The notes under the pieces were generated by a model, which did no database searches, was not told the origin of the DNA, and worked only from the letters and a program-made list of their open reading frames with translations. 64,000 nt of DNA, taken from the NCBI GenBank assembly GCA_964188305.1, contig OZ076893.1. One strand, given 5' to 3'. The stretch comes from Podarcis bocagei. Lineage: Eukaryota. The position numbers were made by a program, and so were the translations under genes. Shown here in pieces: positions 2,409-52,196 of the stretch (position 1 is the stretch's first letter; each line of letters starts with the position of its first letter).

Positions 2409-3177
2409 CACTAGTAAGGGCCAGGGTCGTTTAAGACTTAGGGATGCGTGCTATACTTCCCCAATTTGGGGATCTCCACATGCTGTTGGCCCATGACTCC
2501 CGCCATCTCTGACCATTGACTATGGTATCTTGTGCCCATAGAGGTTGGGAGCCTATTGGCATCTCGAGGCAACTGGGTTGGGAAAGTCTGGGTTAGAGTG
2601 TCAGATTAGGACTGTTGAGTGAACTTGGGCCAGTGACTACCACTTAACCTAATAGATTTCAATAGAGGATAAAATGGGATAGTGGTTGTGGAGCCCCAAT
2701 TCCTTGGAAGACAGGTGAGATATATAATTAGACCGCAATGATACATACACATACCTGGGAGCAAGCTCAGCTGAGCAGTCAGGTAAAGGACTCCATGTGT
2801 GTTTATTTATTCATATCTAAAATATTACACGTCACCTTTTCTCATATTGTTCAAACAATATTCTCATATTGATAAGCAAAGAAGTCAGACAGAATTCCTA
2901 TTTACCAAATGCAAACATTTTTAGTGATGCACAAATGACTCCAATACACAAAATTGTGTGTATAGCATATTCTTTCACAGATGCTGTCATTTTCCTTTTG
3001 CTTGAATGCCTTGCATTGAAGAGTGAAGTGTCCATATGCTCTTGCTCTTTGGTTTCAAACACGTTATTGTTCATTACTAAGGATGGAAAGATAAGTCAGT
3101 TTCTGCTCCCTCAGTTTCTCATCTTGAACTCAGATCTCCACATTTCTGCAACAATTTTCAATTATCATCATAATCAC

Positions 3178-3585
3178 TGTGATGGGATGATTAGCTGCTT
3201 GTGCGTAAAATCGTGGTTCCTCAGAGTTTGTGCAACTCCACAAACCTCTGTGTGTGACAGAGCTCCTCAAACATGTCTGCCCTAGTCACTTGTAGATTCC
3301 GACAGTGGTTGTTTTCGGAATCGTTTCCAGCATAAGAGCTCCTTAACGGAAACCCGCCTTCTGGACTCACGGCGTGACAGTTTCCGGCGAGGCGTGGGTC
3401 TCCCTATGGGAGCTTCAGATACCTCCCCACTGTTCTCGCTGGAAGTGTCTCTGAGCCCTCCCACCTGCTCGCATTCCCTCAAAGATCCACTCCTCCCCCT
3501 GCTGGTTCCTGCTTCAGCTGTTGAGTCTCTGTCTACCTCCCTGAGCCCCTCCACCACCTGTTCCTCCGATGGCAGTTCCCTGACA
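3178..3585 (-). repeat. 3' LTR of Gypsy element
   Basis: Direct repeat of 8220-8627; differs only at 3218/8260 and 3276/8318 (T vs C on + strand). Confidence 0.97.
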
Positions 3586-5591
3586 TCCACCTCCCCTCCA
3601 GGGCCCCCCTCACCCCCTCCCGTTTCCCCTCCTCTGGGAGGTGAGGAGGTAAAACCCCGAAAAGAATCTTCTTCATCTTCAGACGTCTCGAACAATTCCC
3701 TCCATCGATCGCCGTCCTGGCTCGCTGAATCCTCCTCCTCCTCGGAATCTGTGAACCCCTCCAACTCCTCTTCTTCGTCGGTGGTGGCAAAGTATTCCCT
3801 CCGGAACCTCGCTACAGGCTGAGGTTTACGTGGGAACCTCTGATGAAAAGTTTCTATTAAAACCTCGTCATTGACATCCTCTGCCCTGACCCAGGTGTTT
3901 TCTGACTCCGGTTCCCCTTCCCACATTACCAAATACTCTACTTGATCTCCCTTCCACCTGGAATCGAGGATCTCCGCTACATGGTAGCTTTGTTCCCTTT
4001 CCTCCATTGCTGGTCCCCGAGTGACCCTCCCTTCTCTGTCCCCTTTATACAGTGACAGCAATGACCTGTGGAAAACTGGGTGCAGCTTCATGTGGTTCGG
4101 TAACCGGAGTCTGAAAGCCACTGGATTGACCTGTTGTGTGATTTCAAATGGGCCCAATCTTTTGGGTCTTAACTTCTTACAACCCCCTTTGAAGGGTAAC
4201 CCTTGGGTTGACAGCCACACTTGGTCCCCCACCCTAATGGTTTCACCTTCTCTCCTGTGTTTGTCTGCCTGCCTCTTATATTCCTCCTTGGCCCTGTCTA
4301 AGTTAAGTTGGAGCTGGCGATGGATCGCTTCCATTTCTTCTACGAACTGTTCGGCAGCTGGAACGCTCCATCTCTCCCCTTCCCCCCCTGGGAAAGCCCT
4401 GGGATGGCACCCGTAATTAGCCAAAAAGGGGCTCATCCCCGTGGACACGTTCTCCGCATTGTTGTAGGCAAATTCTGCCAATGCCAACTTCTCCACCCAA
4501 TCATTCTCTCTGTCATTAACATAACACCTCAAATATTGCTGGAGGATGCCATTGGCTCTTTCCGCCTGCCCATTGGTTTCAGGATGCCGGGCAGTCGAGA
4601 AATTAACCTCTACATGCAGTAAGCTCATGAGCTTCCTCCAGAACCTGGAAGTAAATTGTTTCCCTCGGTCTGAAACCACCCTCAAGGGGGCGCCATGCAA
4701 CCTAAACACATTTTCTACAAACAATTTAGCTGTTTCTTCTGCCGTGACCGCATGTGAGCAGGCTATAAAGTGTGCCATTTTGGTTAACAGGTCTACCACA
4801 ACCATGATGGCTGTTTTCCCTCTGGACCTTGGCAGATCAGTCATGAAATCTATGGCCACTGCTTCCCATGGTCTTTCTGGTGTGGGTAGCGGTTCTAACA
4901 ACCCTGCCGGCGCCCGCCTTTCCCCTTTGGCTCGCTGGCATTGGTCACAACTCCTCACATACTCCCGCACGTCTTCCCTGACCTTAGGCCACCAAAATTC
5001 CCTGGTCACCAGCCACATGGTTCTGTGTTGCCCAAAATGCCCCGCTGTGGGGCTATCGTGCAGCTGCTTGAGTACCTTCCCCCTCAACTCTCCTTCAGGT
5101 ATATATAACGCTCCCTTGTAGTACAACGCCCCGTTTCTCTCCTCAAAACCTCCGGGTTTATCTCCCTCCCTCCTGAGTCCCCTGAGTTTGTCCTGTGCGT
5201 ATTCATCGTTCTCCGTTCCCTCTACCAGTTCTCTTTGCCCCACCAATGCCGCCCCACACACCCAGCGGTCCTCTGGAATGACATGTCTCTCTTCGGGTGC
5301 TCCCTCTCCCTCCAAATATTCAGGTTTACGTGAGAGAGCATCCGCCCTAACGTTCTCTGGGCCTGGCACATAACAAATCTCAAAGTTAAATCTGGAGAAC
5401 TCCTGGGCCCATCTCAACTGCCGTTGGTTGAGCACTCGTGCCGTTCTCCAATACTCTAGGTTCTTGTGGTCCGTGCACACTTGCACCTTATGTTGTGCGC
5501 CAATTAGCAGGTGCCTCCATCTCCGAAAAGCCTCATGAATAGCAAGAAGTTCTCGATCGTACACCGTGTAGTTCCTCTCGGATTTAAGCAC
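3282..5591 (-). CDS. pol: pol, 3' part: RNase H C-terminal part, integrase (HHCC, DDE, GPF), chromodomain, acidic tail, LTR-encoded basic tail
   Basis: RH motifs RELLA, TDHKNL, ADALSR; zinc finger HDSPTAGH...CDQC; DFMTD, VSDRG, ERAN; GPF; chromodomain YHVAEILDSR...YLVMWEG...NTWV. Out of frame with the 5' part of pol at about 5588. Confidence 0.93.
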   Translation of the reverse strand: MLKSERNYTVYDRELLAIHEAFRRWRHLLIGAQHKVQVCTDHKNLEYWRTARVLNQRQLRWAQEFSRFNFEICYVPGPENVRADALSRKPEYLEGEGAPEERHVIPEDRWVCGAALVGQRELVEGTENDEYAQDKLRGLRREGDKPGGFEERNGALYYKGALYIPEGELRGKVLKQLHDSPTAGHFGQHRTMWLVTREFWWPKVREDVREYVRSCDQCQRAKGERRAPAGLLEPLPTPERPWEAVAIDFMTDLPRSRGKTAIMVVVDLLTKMAHFIACSHAVTAEETAKLFVENVFRLHGAPLRVVSDRGKQFTSRFWRKLMSLLHVEVNFSTARHPETNGQAERANGILQQYLRCYVNDRENDWVEKLALAEFAYNNAENVSTGMSPFLANYGCHPRAFPGGEGERWSVPAAEQFVEEMEAIHRQLQLNLDRAKEEYKRQADKHRREGETIRVGDQVWLSTQGLPFKGGCKKLRPKRLGPFEITQQVNPVAFRLRLPNHMKLHPVFHRSLLSLYKGDREGRVTRGPAMEEREQSYHVAEILDSRWKGDQVEYLVMWEGEPESENTWVRAEDVNDEVLIETFHQRFPRKPQPVARFRREYFATTDEEEELEGFTDSEEEEDSASQDGDRWRELFETSEDEEDSFRGFTSSPPRGGETGGGEGGPGGEVDVRELPSEEQVVEGLREVDRDSTAEAGTSRGRSGSLRECEQVGGLRDTSSENSGEVSEAPIGRPTPRRKLSRRESRRRVSVKELLCWKRFRKQPLSESTSD
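3586..3599 (-). other. Polypurine tract (plus-strand primer)
   Basis: GGAGGGGAGGTGGA on the minus strand, abutting the 3' LTR. Confidence 0.85.
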
Positions 5592-7248
5592 ACGGTCTCC
5601 ACTCTGACTCCTCCTTCCCTGGCTGCAGAAGAAGCACCGCCCCTATGGCTCTGTCTGATGCGTCTGTTTCGACTCTCATCTTTTTTTGTAAATCCACATG
5701 CAGAAGTTGTTCTTCAGAGGCGAAGGCCCTTTTTAGCTCCTCAAAAGCTCGCTCCGCCTCCTCAGTCCAAACAAATTTCTTCTTACTGCTGAGACAGTCC
5801 GTTATGGGCGCCGTCAGGTGGGCAAAGTTTCGGATGAACTTACGGTAAAAGTTCCCAAACCCTAGGAACCTCTGCACATCCTTCTTTGTTTTGGGTGTTT
5901 TCCATTCCAGCACTGCCTGGACCTTGCCGGGATCCATAGCCAATCCCTTGTCTGACAGGCGGTACCCCAGGAACTCCACCTCCTTGGTATGAAACTGACA
6001 CTTCTCCAGTTTCACCCACAGCCGGTTGGCTAGCAGCCTGCGCAACACTTCTCTGACGTCTCTCACATGCTGCTCCTCATTCTCAGAATACACCAACACG
6101 TCATCCAGGAAGGCCACACAATTCTTGTAAAGCAAAGGCCCTAGTACGTGGTTCATCAGCGATTGAAAGCACGCTGAGCCTGCTTGTAATCCAAATGGCA
6201 TAACGAGATATTCAAATGCCCCCAAAGGGGTGAACATGGTGGTTTTCCATTCATCCCCTTTCCTTATACGTATCAGATTGTACGCCCCCCTTAGGTCCAG
6301 CTTGGTAAAAATCTTTCCCTTCCGCACCCTGTTCAAAATGTCATCTATTCTAGGCATGGGAAAGGCCAATGGTTCTGACACTGCGTTTAAGGCCCGAAAG
6401 TCACACACAAGTCTCGGCTTGTCCGTGTTTTTCTTATCCACAAAAAACACTGGACTACCTCCCACCGCTCTTGACTCTCTGATGAAACCCCTCTTCAGGT
6501 TCTTGTCAATGAACTCTCGTAACTCCTGCATTTCTCTGTCTGACATGGCATACAACTTGCCTGCGGGGAGCTGCGCCCCAGGCAGTAAATTGATTTGACA
6601 ATCGAAGGGTCTATGCGGGGGTAGTTGGTCAGCTTCCCTTTCGCTGAACACATCACTGAGATCTGCGTATTGTCGTGGTACCTTCACCTTCTCCGTTACT
6701 TCTGTCCCTGCTAGGGTAGCTTGGGCTCCTGCTGAACCCTTTCCCTCCCTGCAGTGTTCTAAGCAATGTGCGGAACCAAAGGAAACCACTCTCTGATGCC
6801 AGCCCACCAGTGGATCATGTAACGCCAGCCAGCTCATCCCCAAAATAATGGGAGCCCCTCCCAAGGTGGCCACATTAAACGCTATCAGTTCTGTGTGCCT
6901 TGCCACCTTCATTATCATTGGGACGGTCTGCAAGCTGACTTCCCCTCCCAACAGCTCCCTGCCATCGATCGTGGTCACCTGTAGGGGGTTGCTTAAAGGG
7001 ATCGTCTGTATCTGGTGTTCAGCTGCAAACTCTTTGCTCATGAAATTGCAGGAGCTGCCTGAGTCCAACAGCGCCTTAATCTTCAGAGGGTATCCGTTTT
7101 GCAACTCCAGTGACACTTCTATCACTAGGGCAGGTTTGGGAGGTTCTGGCGTGGGCACTTTCACTGCTCTTTGGCCTGGCTGCTGTGCCCCGACGGTGGC
7201 AGCCAGGCGTTGGCTTTTACTTGCTCCGATATCTCTTCCACTCCTCCC
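5584..7248 (-). CDS. pol: pol, 5' part: aspartic protease, reverse transcriptase, RNase H N-terminal part (-1 frame relative to gag; frame open from 7248)
   Basis: LLDSGS protease motif; RT motifs KLDLRGAYNLIRI, MPFGL, FLDD; RH TDAS; terminates prematurely at WRPCA*. Confidence 0.93.
   Translation of the reverse strand, partial: GRSGRDIGASKSQRLAATVGAQQPGQRAVKVPTPEPPKPALVIEVSLELQNGYPLKIKALLDSGSSCNFMSKEFAAEHQIQTIPLSNPLQVTTIDGRELLGGEVSLQTVPMIMKVARHTELIAFNVATLGGAPIILGMSWLALHDPLVGWHQRVVSFGSAHCLEHCREGKGSAGAQATLAGTEVTEKVKVPRQYADLSDVFSEREADQLPPHRPFDCQINLLPGAQLPAGKLYAMSDREMQELREFIDKNLKRGFIRESRAVGGSPVFFVDKKNTDKPRLVCDFRALNAVSEPLAFPMPRIDDILNRVRKGKIFTKLDLRGAYNLIRIRKGDEWKTTMFTPLGAFEYLVMPFGLQAGSACFQSLMNHVLGPLLYKNCVAFLDDVLVYSENEEQHVRDVREVLRRLLANRLWVKLEKCQFHTKEVEFLGYRLSDKGLAMDPGKVQAVLEWKTPKTKKDVQRFLGFGNFYRKFIRNFAHLTAPITDCLSSKKKFVWTEEAERAFEELKRAFASEEQLLHVDLQKKMRVETDASDRAIGAVLLLQPGKEESEWRPCA
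7150..7221 (-). promoter_or_regulatory. Putative -1 ribosomal frameshift signal (heptamer, 6-nt spacer, H-type pseudoknot)
   Basis: Lies in the gag/pol overlap; perfect 10-bp stem GCCTGGCTGC/GCAGCCAGGC (7208-7199 / 7183-7174); loop GGGCAC is complementary to downstream GTGCCC (7158-7153). Confidence 0.72.
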
Positions 7249-8174
7249 TCAACAGCTCCCACCATCCCTTGCCATTCCTTCCTCTGGGGGCAGACAGTGG
7301 CAAAGTGACCTGGCTGTTGGCAGAGATAGCACTTCCGGGCGCCTTTTCCCTCCTTCCTACCCCCTTCACTGGGCTTTGAAACTGCGCGCGCGCGCGCTGT
7401 TCCGATTTCCATCGGCTCTGCCGGCGGGAAAGCTGGCTCAGGAATGTCTGGAATGCGGAACTCCTTCCAACGTTCCCCCTTACCTTCCCGCCTCTCCAAG
7501 GCTCTCGCCTCCTGGCGCGCTCCTATGGTCAGCGCAGATTTGGTCAGCTGATCCATAGAAACCGCTCTGGGGCTCCGGGACAGTTCGTCTTTCACAGCCG
7601 AAGAAAGACCTTCTTCAAATAGCATCTGAATAGGTGCCGCCGATAAATCCCACCCCAATCTGTGAACCAGCATGGTGAACTCAGTCCAGTACTCACGGAC
7701 AGATCGGCTTCCCTGCTTGCAAGCCATTAACTGTCTGCGCACCACTCCCTCCTCAATATCGCTGGAAAACATGAGATCCATTGCACGAAAGAACTTCATG
7801 GTGTCCTTTAGGACGTCATTATGCGTTGCCATCAGGGGTCTAACCCAGTCCCTCGCCCCTTTTTCAAGATGCCCAATCACAAAAGCCACTCGCGATTCCT
7901 CATCAGGGAATTCATCAAACTGCACATTGAGGGCATATTGCATCTCTGTTCTAAAGGCATGGTAGTCCTTGGGGTCCCCCCCAAATTTCTGCACCAATCC
8001 TGGTACCTTTCTGGTGAACTGGGTGGCTCTCCCCTTCTTGTCTGCATCCTGAGCCCTTCTCTCCTCAAGCCTCGCCGTCTGCAGCGCCAATTGGATTTCC
8101 AACACTCTGTACCTTTCTTCCAAGCTTGGACCAGCTCCAACCCCTGCTCCTTCGGTTCCGGCTGGGTCGCTCAT
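7161..8174 (-). CDS. gag: gag (retrotransposon capsid domain plus CCHC zinc knuckle)
   Basis: Starts MSDPAGTEG at the first ATG after the PBS; FGGDP motif, QGSRSVREY MHR-like motif, PMEIG motif, CYLCQQPGHFATVC knuckle; frame intact. Confidence 0.92.
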   Translation of the reverse strand: MSDPAGTEGAGVGAGPSLEERYRVLEIQLALQTARLEERRAQDADKKGRATQFTRKVPGLVQKFGGDPKDYHAFRTEMQYALNVQFDEFPDEESRVAFVIGHLEKGARDWVRPLMATHNDVLKDTMKFFRAMDLMFSSDIEEGVVRRQLMACKQGSRSVREYWTEFTMLVHRLGWDLSAAPIQMLFEEGLSSAVKDELSRSPRAVSMDQLTKSALTIGARQEARALERREGKGERWKEFRIPDIPEPAFPPAEPMEIGTARARAVSKPSEGGRKEGKGARKCYLCQQPGHFATVCPQRKEWQGMVGAVEGGVEEISEQVKANAWLPPSGHSSQAKEQ

Positions 8175-8206: not shown

Positions 8207-8217
8207 ACTGTCGGAAT
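8207..8217 (-). other. Primer-binding site of self-priming (Tf1/sushi) type
   Basis: ATTCCGACAGT begins 2 nt after the 5' LTR, lacks the TGG of tRNA-type PBSs, and is the exact complement of 11 nt inside the LTR (8348-8338). Confidence 0.8.
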
Positions 8218-8219
8218 GC

Positions 8220-8627
8220 TGTGATGGGATGATTAGCTGCTTGTGCGTAAAATCGTGGTCCCTCAGAGTTTGTGCAACTCCACAAACCTCTGTGTGTGAC
8301 AGAGCTCCTCAAACATGCCTGCCCTAGTCACTTGTAGATTCCGACAGTGGTTGTTTTCGGAATCGTTTCCAGCATAAGAGCTCCTTAACGGAAACCCGCC
8401 TTCTGGACTCACGGCGTGACAGTTTCCGGCGAGGCGTGGGTCTCCCTATGGGAGCTTCAGATACCTCCCCACTGTTCTCGCTGGAAGTGTCTCTGAGCCC
8501 TCCCACCTGCTCGCATTCCCTCAAAGATCCACTCCTCCCCCTGCTGGTTCCTGCTTCAGCTGTTGAGTCTCTGTCTACCTCCCTGAGCCCCTCCACCACC
8601 TGTTCCTCCGATGGCAGTTCCCTGACA
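8220..8627 (-). repeat. 5' LTR of Gypsy element
   Basis: TGTCAGG...CATCACA on the minus strand; direct repeat of 3178-3585. Confidence 0.97.
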
Positions 8628-8938
8628 ATCACCATCATCATTTTTTTTTAAAAAAAAAACAAACACCAAAAACCAAAATCTTCATGAAAATCCTTTGGCA
8701 TTTTAGTTCAAATCACACCTAATCAACAAAAAATTGTATGTGGCTTTGATAAATGTGCACATGTTTGCAAGCAATTTCACCCCATATCCTGCATTTTTAA
8801 TGTTCCATTAATATATTCATTTTTGCACACTTTTTCCTAATCTATGCATTTTTATTAACATTAGTTGGAGAACTGCATCCTGTTTTGTTATGTTTTCGTA
8901 TATGCTGGAAGCTGCCCAGAGTGGCAGGGTACAAATAA

Positions 8939-12657: not shown

Positions 12658-13168
12658 TTGTTGTTGTTTAGTCATTTAGTCGTGTCCGACTCTTCGTGAC
12701 CCCATGGACCAGAGCACGCCAGGCACTCCTATCTTCCACTTCCTCCCGCAGTTTGGTCAGACTCATGTTTGTGGCTTCGAGAACACTATGCAACCATCTC
12801 AGCCTCTGTCGTCCCCATCTCCTTGTGCCCTCCATCTTTCCCAACATCAGGGTCTTTTCCAGGGAGTCTTCTCTTCTCATGAGGTGGCCAAAGTATTGGA
12901 GCCTCAGCTTCACGATCTGTCCTTCCAGTGACCACTCAGGGCTGATTTCCTTAAGAATGGATGCGTTTGATCTTCTTGCAGTCCATGGGACTCTCAAAAG
13001 TCTCCTCCAGCACCATAATTCAAAAGCATCAATTCTTCGGCGATCAGCCTTCTTTATGGTCCAGCTCTCACTTCCATACATCACTACTGGGAAAACCATA
13101 GCTTTAACTATACAGACCTTTCTTGGCAAGGTGATGTCTCTGCTTTTGAAGATGCTGTCTAGGTTTGC
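12658..13168 (-). mobile_element. Bov-B (RTE LINE) 3' fragment
   Basis: ORF 12668-13129 encodes KAMVFPVVMYGSESWTIKKA...DAFELWCWRRLLRVPWTARRSN...LEKTLMLGK, the characteristic Bov-B C-terminus; (CAA)n tail. Confidence 0.93.
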
Positions 13169-15351
13169 CTAGTATCGGCCATATACTTGTACAACAGTGT
13201 GTGCACTGCCTAGTGCTTTTCCCTTGCTCTGTTGGCTTGCCAACATTAACCCAGCTGAAACGACAGCATCAAAGGCAATTTGTATTGAAGACAAGTAACA
13301 ACTGGGAGCCAGGACTCATTGGAGTAACAAGGCAGGAAGTTTCATTTCACCCTGACCGCCGCCACCTCCCGGGAAACAAGACCATCTCCCTCCACATCAT
13401 CCACCCTCCTTTTCATTAGCACCTTTACAACACATTATCCTTGTCCTAATCCTCTGGCCATTTTAGGGATTGGGGGTCATTAGTGCACTTGCAGGGTTGA
13501 TCTTATTGTGCTGGAGGTGTGAATTGATCATCAAAATGACAACTGGTGACAGGCATGCTCTATTGGTTTCCTCCTTTGATTCTTGATTGCACATTAATAG
13601 TTTGGAGGGTGTGATGCACTGCTTTTGTAAAGCCTACACAATTCAATTTGGAACCCCCACAACCCTCCTCCCCCCCCCCCATTTTCCGTATACTTCCATG
13701 AGAGGCCTTACCTCTATGAATTTGTGAAATAAAATATAAACAGTGTGAAATAAGGAGCTTGTCGAGACCACTTTACTGGAGTCTAGTGACCCTCTTTCCA
13801 TTCTTTCACCGCACACTTAGGAGGATAGACTTTTGTATTTGGAAAAAGTGGTGGTAGTGGCCTTGTAGGGTAGGTTGATGAGGAAGTAGGTTTGCCTCAG
13901 GCTACCTTATTTTCTGCCTCGGGACAGAAAATAGATTTGAAACAATGATCTCCTGATTCTTAATCGACTTTCATAGCTACTGGAAGTAGTGGGACTCATT
14001 TCAACATAGCTAACATAGAAAACTCGGTCCTGATCAACTGTCTTCATCACGAGCAAATGCACTGCGGTGTTTCTTCAGCCGAAAGGGCCATTTACTATAG
14101 GGGTTGTGTGCTGGTGGTTGGTTGAGGCAGGAGCAAAAGTATGGAACTCTTACCTTTCCAGCAGGCTATATATAGTCACAGAAAAGCCAAGAATTTCTAC
14201 AAACACATCCTTCCTTCCTTCCATCCACCCATCCAAGCGAGCAAGCAAGAGGCATTATTAAGGTTCAAGAACACATTCCAGCCAGACAAAAGCAACCCAG
14301 AAGGAGCAGAGCAGGCCTGGAGAAGGCAGCAGCATGGCCTGGGGACAGTCTCAAGGGCCACACAGAGATGTCCAGAGGAAAACATTCGGCCCCTGGGGCC
14401 TAAAACCATTTGCTTAACCTAGCATCTATTACATGCATATTGGCTGCAACTGATTTTTTTAAAGAAAAACATTCTATTGCAAGCAGCTTTTTTGGTGCAG
14501 GGAAATTATTATCAAACCCCACCCAACAGGAACATTTCTCACCTTTCCCAACCTGCCGGCTGTTAAAGAAGGTGCATTTCTCACCAGGCAAAGGTGATCA
14601 AAGAAAACCACATAGTGCTATGGAAATCAATCTTGATCAAATGATGATAATTAATCTTCATCATGAGTGACATTCCCACCCTTCCTGTGGTATCATGAGC
14701 CCCCAAACTACTCAGGTCACTTGTGTGGGCTCTCTTTCTTTCTCTCTTCTTATTTCAAATGCTGCCTTTGATGAAGATGACATGGGAATCTCTAATTATT
14801 TTAATGGGGCTAATTAGAGAATGATATACATTCATTATTATGGAGAATGCCGAGAGTAGATTGCCTCTCAAAGCTGCATGGCTTGCTACTTTTAGTGTGT
14901 AGCGTCTTTCCCAAAGAAAATGAGATTTTTTTCCTCTGGTCCACAAGGAAACTGTACTGCAGTTGAAAGATTTTGTGGCTAAATTGGAATCACCCTTTCA
15001 GCAGAAAGTAGTCAATGACACTCTTGAATTACTTGGTGTCCTCCTGATTCATACAGTGTATCTCATAACAAGAATTGTATTTCATAATTATATAATTGAA
15101 TGGTCTTCAATTTCAATATCTGCCTCAAAATCAGCACATTTGAACCATGCAGAAAAATATCTACCCTACATTGTGTGTTTTTATATTTTTATTGTCCATT
15201 TATTCCTCTTGCTGCTTCTTGACATTCTTTTCCTACCTTTTTGAGGTGGGTGTAGGGGCTCACATTTTGCACCCCACCATATGGCTGCGGAACTGTATTG
15301 AAAAATTTGGAGAACTATGACTCTTGAAGGACAACTGAGTTTAGGTTTCCG

Positions 15352-15836
15352 TGCAGAGACATCACCTTGCCAACAAAGGTCTGTATAGTTAAAGCCATGG
15401 TTTTCCCAGCAGTGATGTATGGAAGTGAGAGCCGGACCATAAGGAAGGCTGATCGCCGAAGAATTGATGCTTATGAATTATGGTGCTGGAGGAGACTCTT
15501 GAGAGTCCCATGGACTGCAAGAAGATCAAACGCATCCATTCTTAAGGAAATCAGCCCTGAGTGCTTACTGGAAGGACAGATCGTGAAGCTGAGGCTCCAG
15601 TACTTTGGCCACCTCATGAGAAGAGAAGACTCCCTGGAAAAGACCCTGATGTTGGGAAAGATGGAGGGCACAAGGAGAAGGGGACAACAGAGGACGAGAT
15701 GGTTGGACAGTGTTGTCGAAGCTACCAGCATGAGTTTGACCAAACTGCGGGAGGCAGTGGAAGACAGGAGGGCCTGGCATGCTCTGGTCAATGGGGTCAC
15801 GAAGTCGGACACGACTAAACGACTAAACAACAACAA
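15352..15836 (+). mobile_element. Bov-B (RTE LINE) 3' fragment
   Basis: Same C-terminal peptide (ORF 15367-15858); ends CGACTAAACAACAACAA. Confidence 0.93.
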
Positions 15837-17420
15837 TTGCTCAGGAAGTGAGAATTAAGCAGCTTCACCTTTAAATGCTAAGAGAATTGCATTTCCCTTC
15901 AAACCATAGTTGCAACCTGTTTCTGAACAAAATGTGAAACTTTAGGACACTTGTTCATTCCCAAACCTCAGAACTCAAGATCAGATCAAAGGATCATCTA
16001 GCCCAGCATCTTAGTCAGTCAAAATAGCCAACCAAGTGCCAATGGGAGGAGGACAAGGAGGACATGAGCACAGCAGCACTTACCTCACTTGTGTTGTCAT
16101 ATAAATGGGAAGAATTGTGGAGGTGAGACGTTAGAATTAAGTGGGAGAGAAAAAGAGAACATGAACTCTGAGAACATCTGAGTTTTGTGATTTGGAATCT
16201 AGGCATAATACATTTTGTATTATTATACATTTTGTCCATGGTGTTCAAATAAAGATTTGTGTCATCTGAAAAATACCATGCCAAAGATTCAGATAATTTT
16301 GGAACAGACCAAAATTAATTGTCTTCACGCAAAGACACACACACACACACTTCTGATATTGTCTTCAAGGGGGGGGGGAAGCTAAAATAACAAGACTACA
16401 GGACTTTTGAAGGCAGGAAGGAACATCAGAAGGAAAGGTACTAACAGCAATTCCATTATGCCAAAAAAACAAAGCAAAACCTCTTAATGTAGCTACTGTC
16501 ATGTGGCATATGAAAAGCACTTCTTGCATGGTTTCAAGGGCACTGTAACTTGCCTGTGCCAAATTGAGCAATTTAATGAGAACAGACAGCACAGTTTGTT
16601 AAAGGAATAACATTGAATTAAGGGCATTGACTAGGAGATTGGGTGACTTCCATCCATTAACTTCTATTAGTATCTCTGGCATTTTAATTGTCCTCCAACT
16701 ATACATTCAGAAAACTCTGTTCCTCATAGCAGGGTATTGATAGGAGACAGGTACCCTGAGCCTGTGTTTCATGTTTAGGAGCTAAACAGCAATTCTTCAT
16801 GTTCAGACTTTCCTGAAATGTATGGCTCTGCTCTAGAAAGAGAGGCACTTACACTGCTGCTTCTGTCATTGAAAAGAACAGGGAACCCTACACACTCCAG
16901 AGATCCATGTGCCTATCAGATCTCTGGCAGAGTTCTGGATCAGATCCACTTGGCTGTCCTAAATGTGTCTGGCAAGTTGTTGTCGCTGACTTAATAAGGC
17001 AAACATACTTGGAATGCCTACACCTTCTTATTCAAGCTCAACAGAGGAACCTAGGAAGTCTCATAGCTCAATATTGCCATGTTGGCTGCCATGGCTCTCC
17101 AGGGTTTCAGGCAAGGTGTAGTTTTTCTAACTCTACCTTACCTGGAGGTGCTGAAGATTGAGCCCAGGGCCCTCTGTATGGAGATCAGATGCTGTAAGCC
17201 TAAGATATGACCCTTCCATATTATTCTTTGGAATTTAAGAAACTGGGATATGGAATTTGTGGAATAAGATGGAACTGGAATAACATGGAATGCTGAATAA
17301 TTGTCCAGTTGCTCATACTCATTGAAAGGAGTGGGTTTTCAGAATAAGTGCATAATCTCTTTAATTAAAGCAGCACTTTTTAAAACGTGGAAACTCAGCT
17401 TGCTTTATAGTGTTTTATTT

Positions 17421-51352: not shown

Positions 51353-51520
51353 CAGTGGCGTAGCGTGGGGGGTGCAGGGGGGGCGGCCGCACCGGGCGCA
51401 ACATCTGGGGGTTAGGGTTAGGGGGCGCAAATCCACGGGTTAGGGGGCGCAAATCCACGGGTTAGGGGGCGCAAATTACTTGCCTTGCCCCGGGTGCTGA
51501 CAACCCACACTACGCCACTG
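51353..51520. mobile_element. hAT MITE with telomere-like internal repeats
   Basis: TIRs CAGTGGCGTAG / CTACGCCACTG; perfect 8-bp TSD GCTAGAAC (51345-51352, 51521-51528). Confidence 0.95.
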
Positions 51521-51542
51521 GCTAGAACCCAATGCTAAGAAC

Positions 51543-52196
51543 TTGTCTAGAATGTATAACTTGTTGCTGAAATGGAATACACAAGATGAAACAGTTAAAT
51601 CAGCTATGATTAAGTGGGCACAGGACATTGGTCATAACATTATGTTTGCTGACTGGGAACAGTTGTGGACCACCGGTTTGAAATTTACGGCATGTAATGC
51701 CTTAAAGGAAAATATTATGAAAATGATTTATAGGTGGTACATGACCCCTGTCAAGCTAGCAAAAATTTATCATTTGCCTGATAATAAGTGTTGGAAATGT
51801 AAAGAAACTGAAGGTACCTTTTACCACCTTTGGTGGACATGCCCGAGGATTAAGGCTTTCTGGGAAATGATATATAATGAAATGAAAAAGGTACTTAAAT
51901 GTACTTTCCCTAAGAAACCAGAGGCCTTTCTCTTGGGCATAGTCGGCCAATTGGTGCCAAAGAAGGATAGAATTTTTTTTATGTATGCCACCACAGCAGC
52001 AAGAGTACTTATCGCAAAGCATTGGAAGACTCAAGATCTACCCACTCTGGAAGAATGGCAGATGAAGGTGATAGACTATATGGGACTGGCGGAAATGACC
52101 GGCAGAATCCGTGACCAGGGGAAAGAGACGGCGGAAGAAGATTGGAAGAAATTCAAAATTTATCTTAAGAAACATTGCAAAATTAATGAATGTTAA
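51543..52196 (+). pseudogene. L1 ORF2 C-terminal fragment with cysteine-rich knuckle
   Basis: CWKCKETEGTFYHLWWTC (CX2CX8HX4C) then FW; frame is open and continues upstream once the MITE is removed. Confidence 0.88.

Follow-up and report, generated by a model that had tools for sequence, protein, structure and literature searches.

A conserved basic module encoded in the LTR at the end of a Podarcis chromovirus integrase frame that runs through the predicted U3

Introduction

Protein-coding sequence that overlaps the U3 region of a long terminal repeat (LTR) is familiar from lentiviral nef and MMTV sag, which are separate accessory genes, and the integrase of the retrotransposon Ty1 carries a C-terminal tail that is not known to be LTR-coded. 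Among chromoviruses, the polyprotein reaches into the 3′ LTR for every CRM group A element of plants, where the LTR-coded CR motif is a putative centromere-targeting domain (PMC3059260), and read-through into the 3′ LTR is also described for Beetle7 and Bingo1-4,7 (PMC3605345). In Ty1, the C-terminus of integrase is disordered and has a bipartite NLS whose linker contains a targeting domain (PMC9673352). A further relevant motif is the TIM, which consists of a short helix, an acidic linker of 8-16 aa containing S/T, and FxGF, and which binds LEDGF/HRP2 (PMC9987994, 10.1101/624023).

Here we describe a retrotransposon of Podarcis bocagei that resembles these systems in part. Like CRM group A elements, it has a frame that passes the polypurine tract (PPT) into the 3′ LTR, and its LTR-coded part is conserved, as is the putative targeting domain of CRM. 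CRM group A elements are, however, primed by tRNA-Met, and in them the CR motif replaces the chromodomain, whereas our element keeps a chromodomain upstream and is self-primed. For these two reasons it is not a member of CRM group A, despite a CRM group A-like layout. Our LTR-coded module and the CR motif were likened by layout and description rather than by sequence comparison, and no Pfam family matches the module or the rest of the tail. With the Tf1/sushi group (GyDB V-clade: sushi-ichi, Amn), the element shares its domain order, a chromodomain at the C-terminus, separate frames for gag and pol, a CCHC Gag, and self-priming from a PBS complementary to the LTR (10.1101/2022.12.06.519325, PMC6317226); by self-priming alone, it fits this group. 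Unlike Tf1/sushi, the clade of the element has a tail of 180-390 aa behind the chromodomain, FxGF motifs, and a fully coding U3. In contrast to nef and sag, the U3 frame here continues pol in frame and forms its end.

Results

A young chromovirus with a broken pol frame

The window (the whole stretch of 64,000 nucleotides analysed, from contig OZ076893.1) contains a 5.45-kb Ty3/Gypsy LTR retrotransposon on its minus strand, at 8627-3178 (Table 1). The LTRs have TG...CA termini, the domain order between them is PR-RT-RH-IN with a TSD on both flanks, and the integrase carries a C-terminal chromodomain; the element is thus a Ty3/Gypsy chromovirus, and a young one. Its integrase SH3 domain is of the Tf2 type (Pfam), and among named sequences it is most closely related to Podarcis muralis proteins. 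In the window copy, pol is split into two frames at RNase H, which overlap at 5584-5642, so this copy would not make full-length integrase. The break is present although the two LTRs differ at only 2 of 408 nt, and many other copies have a single pol frame of 1328 aa.

Fourteen of 40 element matches, together with many near-identical copies, lie on one 96.5-Mb contig of the same genome, which we guess to be a non-recombining chromosome. Elsewhere in the window, ORF fragments at 12668-13168, 15328-15858 and 51501-52196 resemble, by eye, C-terminal remnants of LINEs (RTE/L1-type).

Table 1. Positions of the element's features in the window
Feature	Position	Strand	Remarks
5′ LTR	8220..8627	-	408 nt; 2 differences from the 3′ LTR
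3′ LTR	3178..3585	-	408 nt; predicted U3 = 3585-3307
TSD GTGAT	8628-8632 + 3173-3177		both flanks of the element
PBS	8207..8217	-	complementary to the self-primer
Self-primer, 11 nt, predicted transcript 5′ end	8338..8348	-	LTR nt 280-290; fold pairing and covariation
gag (capsid, CCHC knuckle)	7161..8174	-	PF03732, PF00098
pol, first piece: protease, RT, RNase H start	5584..7248	-	frame broken in RNase H in the window copy
pol, second piece: remaining RNase H, integrase (HHCC, core, SH3), chromodomain, tail	3282..5642	-	
Chromodomain	3837..3986	-	PF00385, E 8e-12; 45.3 bits against a cut-off of 25.1; HP1 alignment
First TIM-like motif	3753..3806	-	helix-like stretch, 8-aa acidic linker, LEGF in the window family
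Second TIM-like motif	3651..3704	-	helix-like stretch, 9-aa acidic linker, FRGF
Polypurine tract (PPT)	3586..3599	-	in-frame reading GGEVD
U3-coded linker, 62 aa, predicted disordered	3399..3584	-	pN/pS 0.57-1.16; pLDDT about 41-57
U3-coded basic module, 30 aa	3309..3398	-	Arg-rich run, then hydrophobic-x-L-x-W core (predicted short helix)
Start of predicted R	3282..3306	-	self-primer copy (3306-3296) shared with the last 7 codons and the stop

The integrase frame continues into the 3′ LTR

The second pol ORF (786 aa) remains open across the PPT. Its first codon within the LTR, encoding Val, starts at 3584, which is LTR nt 2, and it ends with a TAG at 3284-3282 (LTR nt 302-304), so that 100 codons of pol lie within the LTR. 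An earlier note on this DNA, made from the letters alone, had proposed just such a course for the frame, from LTR nt 2 to a stop at nt 304 with about 100 LTR-coded amino acids, and both the codon count and the C-terminal sequence agree with it. The open frame goes beyond chance, since only 1.35% of 10,000 shuffles of LTR nt 2-301 are free of stops and the remaining two sense frames of this segment contain 5 and 3 stops. The same note overstated the rarity of the arrangement in taking a pol stop before or near the PPT as the Gypsy norm, as read-through is known in chromoviruses (PMC3059260, PMC3605345). An antisense ORF of 178 aa (3286-3822) was rejected as a gene and is a shadow of the pol frame.

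The read-through is conserved across copies and lineages

The earlier note had pointed to other copies as the place to look for the read-through, and there a stop before the LTR is an exception rather than the majority situation that would count against it. Among the 30 copies of the same genome that match best at the DNA level, 27 stop at LTR nt 304, two at nt 265, and only one before the LTR. Of 30 loci of divergent families found with protein P0004 as query, several being duplicates of each other, 27 could be read and three could not; 23 keep the basic module and four have early stops. With the more distant query P0012, whose score comes mostly from the integrase core, 15 of 30 loci keep an open frame across the module; in 14, scattered stops or shifts interrupt it, and one locus went unread. 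A further subfamily has a stop in the 3′ LTR at five of 10 loci, but in each case that element's own 5′ LTR is free of it (four independent cases), so these stops arose after insertion.

Across lineages, most of which were chosen by protein queries that contain the tail, the lengths from LTR start to stop are all equal modulo 3. The U3 lengths of 279, 285, 306 and 309 nt are all multiples of three, whereas the lengths after the stop (92-104 nt) are unconstrained. Additional in-frame LTR variants stop at nt 283, 349 and 379. A profile of the module found only five proteins among 7,989 scored candidates, four of them from Podarcis muralis. A match to the module lies in P0279, a Podarcis muralis protein annotated as phospholipid-transporting ATPase, and reflects either a gene-model error or LTR exonisation.

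The basic module is under purifying selection

When the window family is compared with five divergent copies, the 30 codons of the module have a pN/pS of 0.25-0.26, with saturated synonymous sites. This level of selection equals that of the chromodomain (0.26-0.37 in the same comparison; 0.30-0.39 for the FxGF region), and the U3 linker reaches 0.83-1.16. Across nine lineages, every one of the 36 pairs gives the module a pN/pS of 0.11-0.42 (Fisher p from 6e-14 to 0.052); these pairs are not independent of one another. The other sense frames over the module have values of 0.65-3.16. By codon position, 21, 12 and 27 of the 30 columns are variable. The antisense frame mirrors the signal of the module, but is interrupted by stops in four of the nine lineages. 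The module is under purifying selection at the protein level, while the linker is only conserved in frame: its sequence drifts and its length changes in frame.

Self-priming places the predicted U3/R border within the frame

The PBS (8217-8207) pairs with LTR nt 280-290 over 11 nt, forming the main duplex of the predicted fold. In the three-duplex pretzel structure, the central duplex is clear and the flanking duplexes are partly predicted (z -2.1, with 9 of 200 shuffles as good); an alignment fold of the pretzel, with three rows only, was uninformative. Thirteen other elements were checked for a self-primer, and among the five for which a 5′ LTR was fetched, four have exact 11-nt matches and one has a 9-nt match. 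Across families, changes in the self-primer and in the PBS are compensatory. Pairing of 9-11 nt was also found at five of 12 loci of a second family described below. With regard to the sequence variants of the self-primer (window 3296-3306; L064, L086, L089, L103), which covary with the PBS, we observed that the overlapping codons (L-S/T-E/D-S) change only synonymously or conservatively.

A self-primer at LTR nt 280-290 predicts that the transcript starts at nt 280 and that the U3/R border lies at 279/280. The predicted U3 would thus be LTR nt 1-279, wholly coding from nt 2, with the stop 25 nt into R. In other elements, too, the distance from the primer start to the stop's end is 25 nt (24-26 before allowing for offsets of the hits). 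Together with the selection on the module and the conserved frame of the linker, this border supports the earlier suggestion that U3 serves as coding sequence. As U3 is templated by the 3′ end of the RNA, any replicating RNA must include the basic module.

U3 may also act as a promoter, the other role proposed for it. The predicted start lies in a CCACT context, which we likened to the initiator consensus. Neither LTR (3178-3585, 8220-8627) contains TATA, AATAAA or ATTAAA, in contrast to the clear AATAAA of LTRs from mainly fish Sushi elements (PMC3601003). Four raw RNA runs were compared with the 3′ end of the window element and the 5′ end of a related copy, and gave 118-273 reads each, on both strands, many of which run into unrelated flanks. 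We found no poly(A) tails among the loose read ends shown and no pile of starts at the predicted site in the four runs, and at this low depth no canonical splice joint. The reads look like passive transcription and say nothing about transcript ends.

A tail-bearing clade and a second family

A profile of chromodomain plus tail, searched against 1.84 billion representative proteins, found P0012, P0013 and P0063. P0012 is 65% identical in integrase, and its tail closes with a basic run that has an LLCW core; comparable cores terminate the tails of P0063 and of a P0013-like second family of the same genome (L145:595-759, minus strand, and L142-L153), which is 52% identical over integrase. The U3 of this second family has 678-682 nt (about 226 aa) and a frame that is open from LTR nt 2 in six of eight copies. 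Its tail ends in an Arg-rich run and an L-x-W core, and the stop lies 22 nt into its own self-primer. The U3 frame is joined to pol in only one of nine copies (L145), and also in protein P0063. The other copies are frame-shifted in G runs before the PPT, through either an error of assembly or slippage in replication, and P0013, the query, has a shift there too, which biases this sample.

The tail-bearing rows form one clade (100/100) in a tree drawn with midpoint rooting and without named sushi or Tf1 rows. In the remaining retrotransposon-like chromodomain proteins from that search, tails are mostly short (30-50 aa) and contain RGRP motifs. Among these, the chromovirus-like integrases P0053, P0073, P0083, P0116, P0121, P0127 and P0133 have RGRP (AT-hook-like) motifs followed by a Gly run and another 10-30 aa up to an SPE[YF]-like terminus, which, judged by sequence, may represent a short read-through past the PPT.

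Chromodomain, TIM-like motifs and basic module

The earlier note had proposed a three-part targeting tail, consisting of a chromodomain, acidic FxGF motifs and a basic helix. The chromodomain departs from the Y-W-Y cage: in the alignment with HP1 its third aromatic cage position is Glu, and in the aligned divergent lineages the first cage aromatic is missing as well. The window chromodomain may therefore not read methyl-lysine, and this degenerate cage weakens the three-part proposal.

In sequence, the FxGF motifs upstream of the PPT resemble LEDGF-binding TIMs such as those of MLL1, JPO2, IWS1 and JIL-1, with a helix, an acidic S/T-containing linker of 8-16 aa and FxGF (PMC9987994, 10.1101/624023). 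Unlike host TIMs, they occur in a retrotransposon integrase and in tandem, the first of the two reads LxGF in the window family where divergent lineages have FxGF or FxGW, and their binding is putative. The TIM layout occurs at least once in nine of nine lineages, and also in P0004, P0012 and L156. It was found in one of 33 other retrotransposon-like chromodomain proteins, and that one is the clade member P0012. The pattern is absent from the second family (L145) and from P0063; in the second family, the linker before FxGF is rich in S/T rather than acidic. The helicity of the helix-like stretch is of low confidence in the model. When a 67-aa segment with both FxGF motifs was modelled in complex with residues 290-385 of P0161, its LEDGF IBD, the prediction, run without alignments or controls, scored 0.15 and 0.16, under the mark of 0.34, and counts neither for nor against binding.

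The tail as a whole is reminiscent of the Ty1 integrase C-terminus, which is likewise long, disordered and acidic, with CK2-type sites and a basic, bipartite-NLS-like end (PMC9673352). This likeness is one of description, and Ty1 belongs to a different superfamily, Copia. The classical bipartite NLS consists of two basic clusters 10-12 aa apart. Each of the 14 scored tails shows this pattern, but so do 19-42% of shuffles, which makes it weak evidence for the putative role of the basic module as an NLS or in nucleosome binding. The conserved hydrophobic core of the module suggests a specific partner. An AlphaFold model has low confidence beyond the chromodomain, including a short helix at residues 217-224, within the module core, and matches in the PDB cover the chromodomain only and not the tail.

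Discussion

The integrase frame of this chromovirus is open through the PPT and is conserved across copies and lineages, its terminal module is under selection, and the self-primer and the PBS covary. We consider the best explanation, to which we assign a probability of roughly 55%, to be that the integrase frame of this clade continues past the PPT and across all of the predicted U3 to end in a selected module that likely serves as a nuclear-import and chromatin-docking signal for the integration complex. Transcription would start at the self-primer, and the 3′ end of the genomic RNA would carry U3, as in standard retroelement replication, so translation of the normal genomic RNA would yield the tail within Gag-Pol, and the tail would remain on integrase. 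The disordered linker could keep the module away from the catalytic core. In the module, the Arg/Lys run would act as an NLS and touch chromatin, with the hydrophobic L-x-W core as the binding site for a single specific partner. Such a core would be superfluous in a mere NLS, so its conservation counts against a function as NLS alone. The FxGF motifs just upstream of the PPT may tether integrase to TND-domain proteins, for example LEDGF/HRP2, and such tethering could make up for the degenerate methyl-lysine cage of the chromodomain. Against the best explanation counts the second family, in which pol continuity was seen in one of nine copies.

A more far-reaching proposal, which we regard as tentative and on balance doubtful, is that a vertebrate chromovirus clade has dropped methyl-lysine reading and instead targets integration through tandem TIMs that dock on LEDGF/HRP2 and through a new type of LTR-coded helix, whose DNA would be at once U3 and core promoter and whose end would be the primer for reverse transcription. 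If this reading of TIM-based targeting is true, it would represent convergence on a lentiviral host factor through a different interface.

The module could also work inside the particle rather than in targeting, with its Arg-rich run binding the element's own RNA or cDNA, or RT, in packaging, self-priming or reverse transcription. We judge this unlikely, although Arg-rich runs are well known to bind nucleic acid and all selection data on the tail would fit a role in the particle equally well. In addition, the C-terminus of Ty1 integrase stimulates RT in cis (PMC9673352). However, the module sits behind the chromodomain and the TIM-like motifs, which is the usual place of a targeting domain in chromoviruses, and its conserved hydrophobic core would suggest a protein as partner.

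It is rather improbable that the U3 frame encodes an independent small product, released from integrase by the protease or made from spliced RNA, in the manner of accessory genes such as nef and sag. The second family would fit such a protein, as its U3 frame is more often intact than it is continuous with pol. In the window family, on the other hand, the 100 LTR-coded amino acids include no Met, most copies of other lineages as well as P0063 are continuous with integrase, and the low-depth RNA reads contain no canonical splice joint.

Least of all do we expect an accidental read-through, in which U3, being purine-rich, is simply poor in stops and the sequence near the transcript start is kept as promoter DNA or as self-priming RNA structure: the near-neutral linker between families, the constraint on the last seven codons as self-primer RNA and the position of the module directly upstream of the predicted start site would agree with it, but it is largely refuted for the module, whose amino acids are kept at saturated synonymous sites with an uneven distribution of variable columns over codon positions, whose other sense frames contain stops and lack constraint, whose antisense signal comes with stops, and whose U3 varies in length by multiples of three as the post-stop region does not.

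Read-through into the LTR is known; the variant described here is that of a chromodomain-bearing, self-primed vertebrate element with a selected LTR-coded module. In the literature, we found neither a U3-coded integrase tail in vertebrate chromoviruses nor FxGF motifs in retrotransposon integrases, most subscription papers being outside the search. The best explanation given above would make the element a vertebrate counterpart to the plant centromeric retrotransposons with their LTR-coded targeting domain, with selection that can be measured on a module that is short and has no name. The whole of a U3, 279 to 678 nt long, can code for protein, a point of importance for annotating LTRs and for interpreting the solo LTRs of these families. 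Should the FxGF motifs bind LEDGF/HRP2, the element would be a retrotransposon that uses the HIV integration cofactor through motif mimicry.
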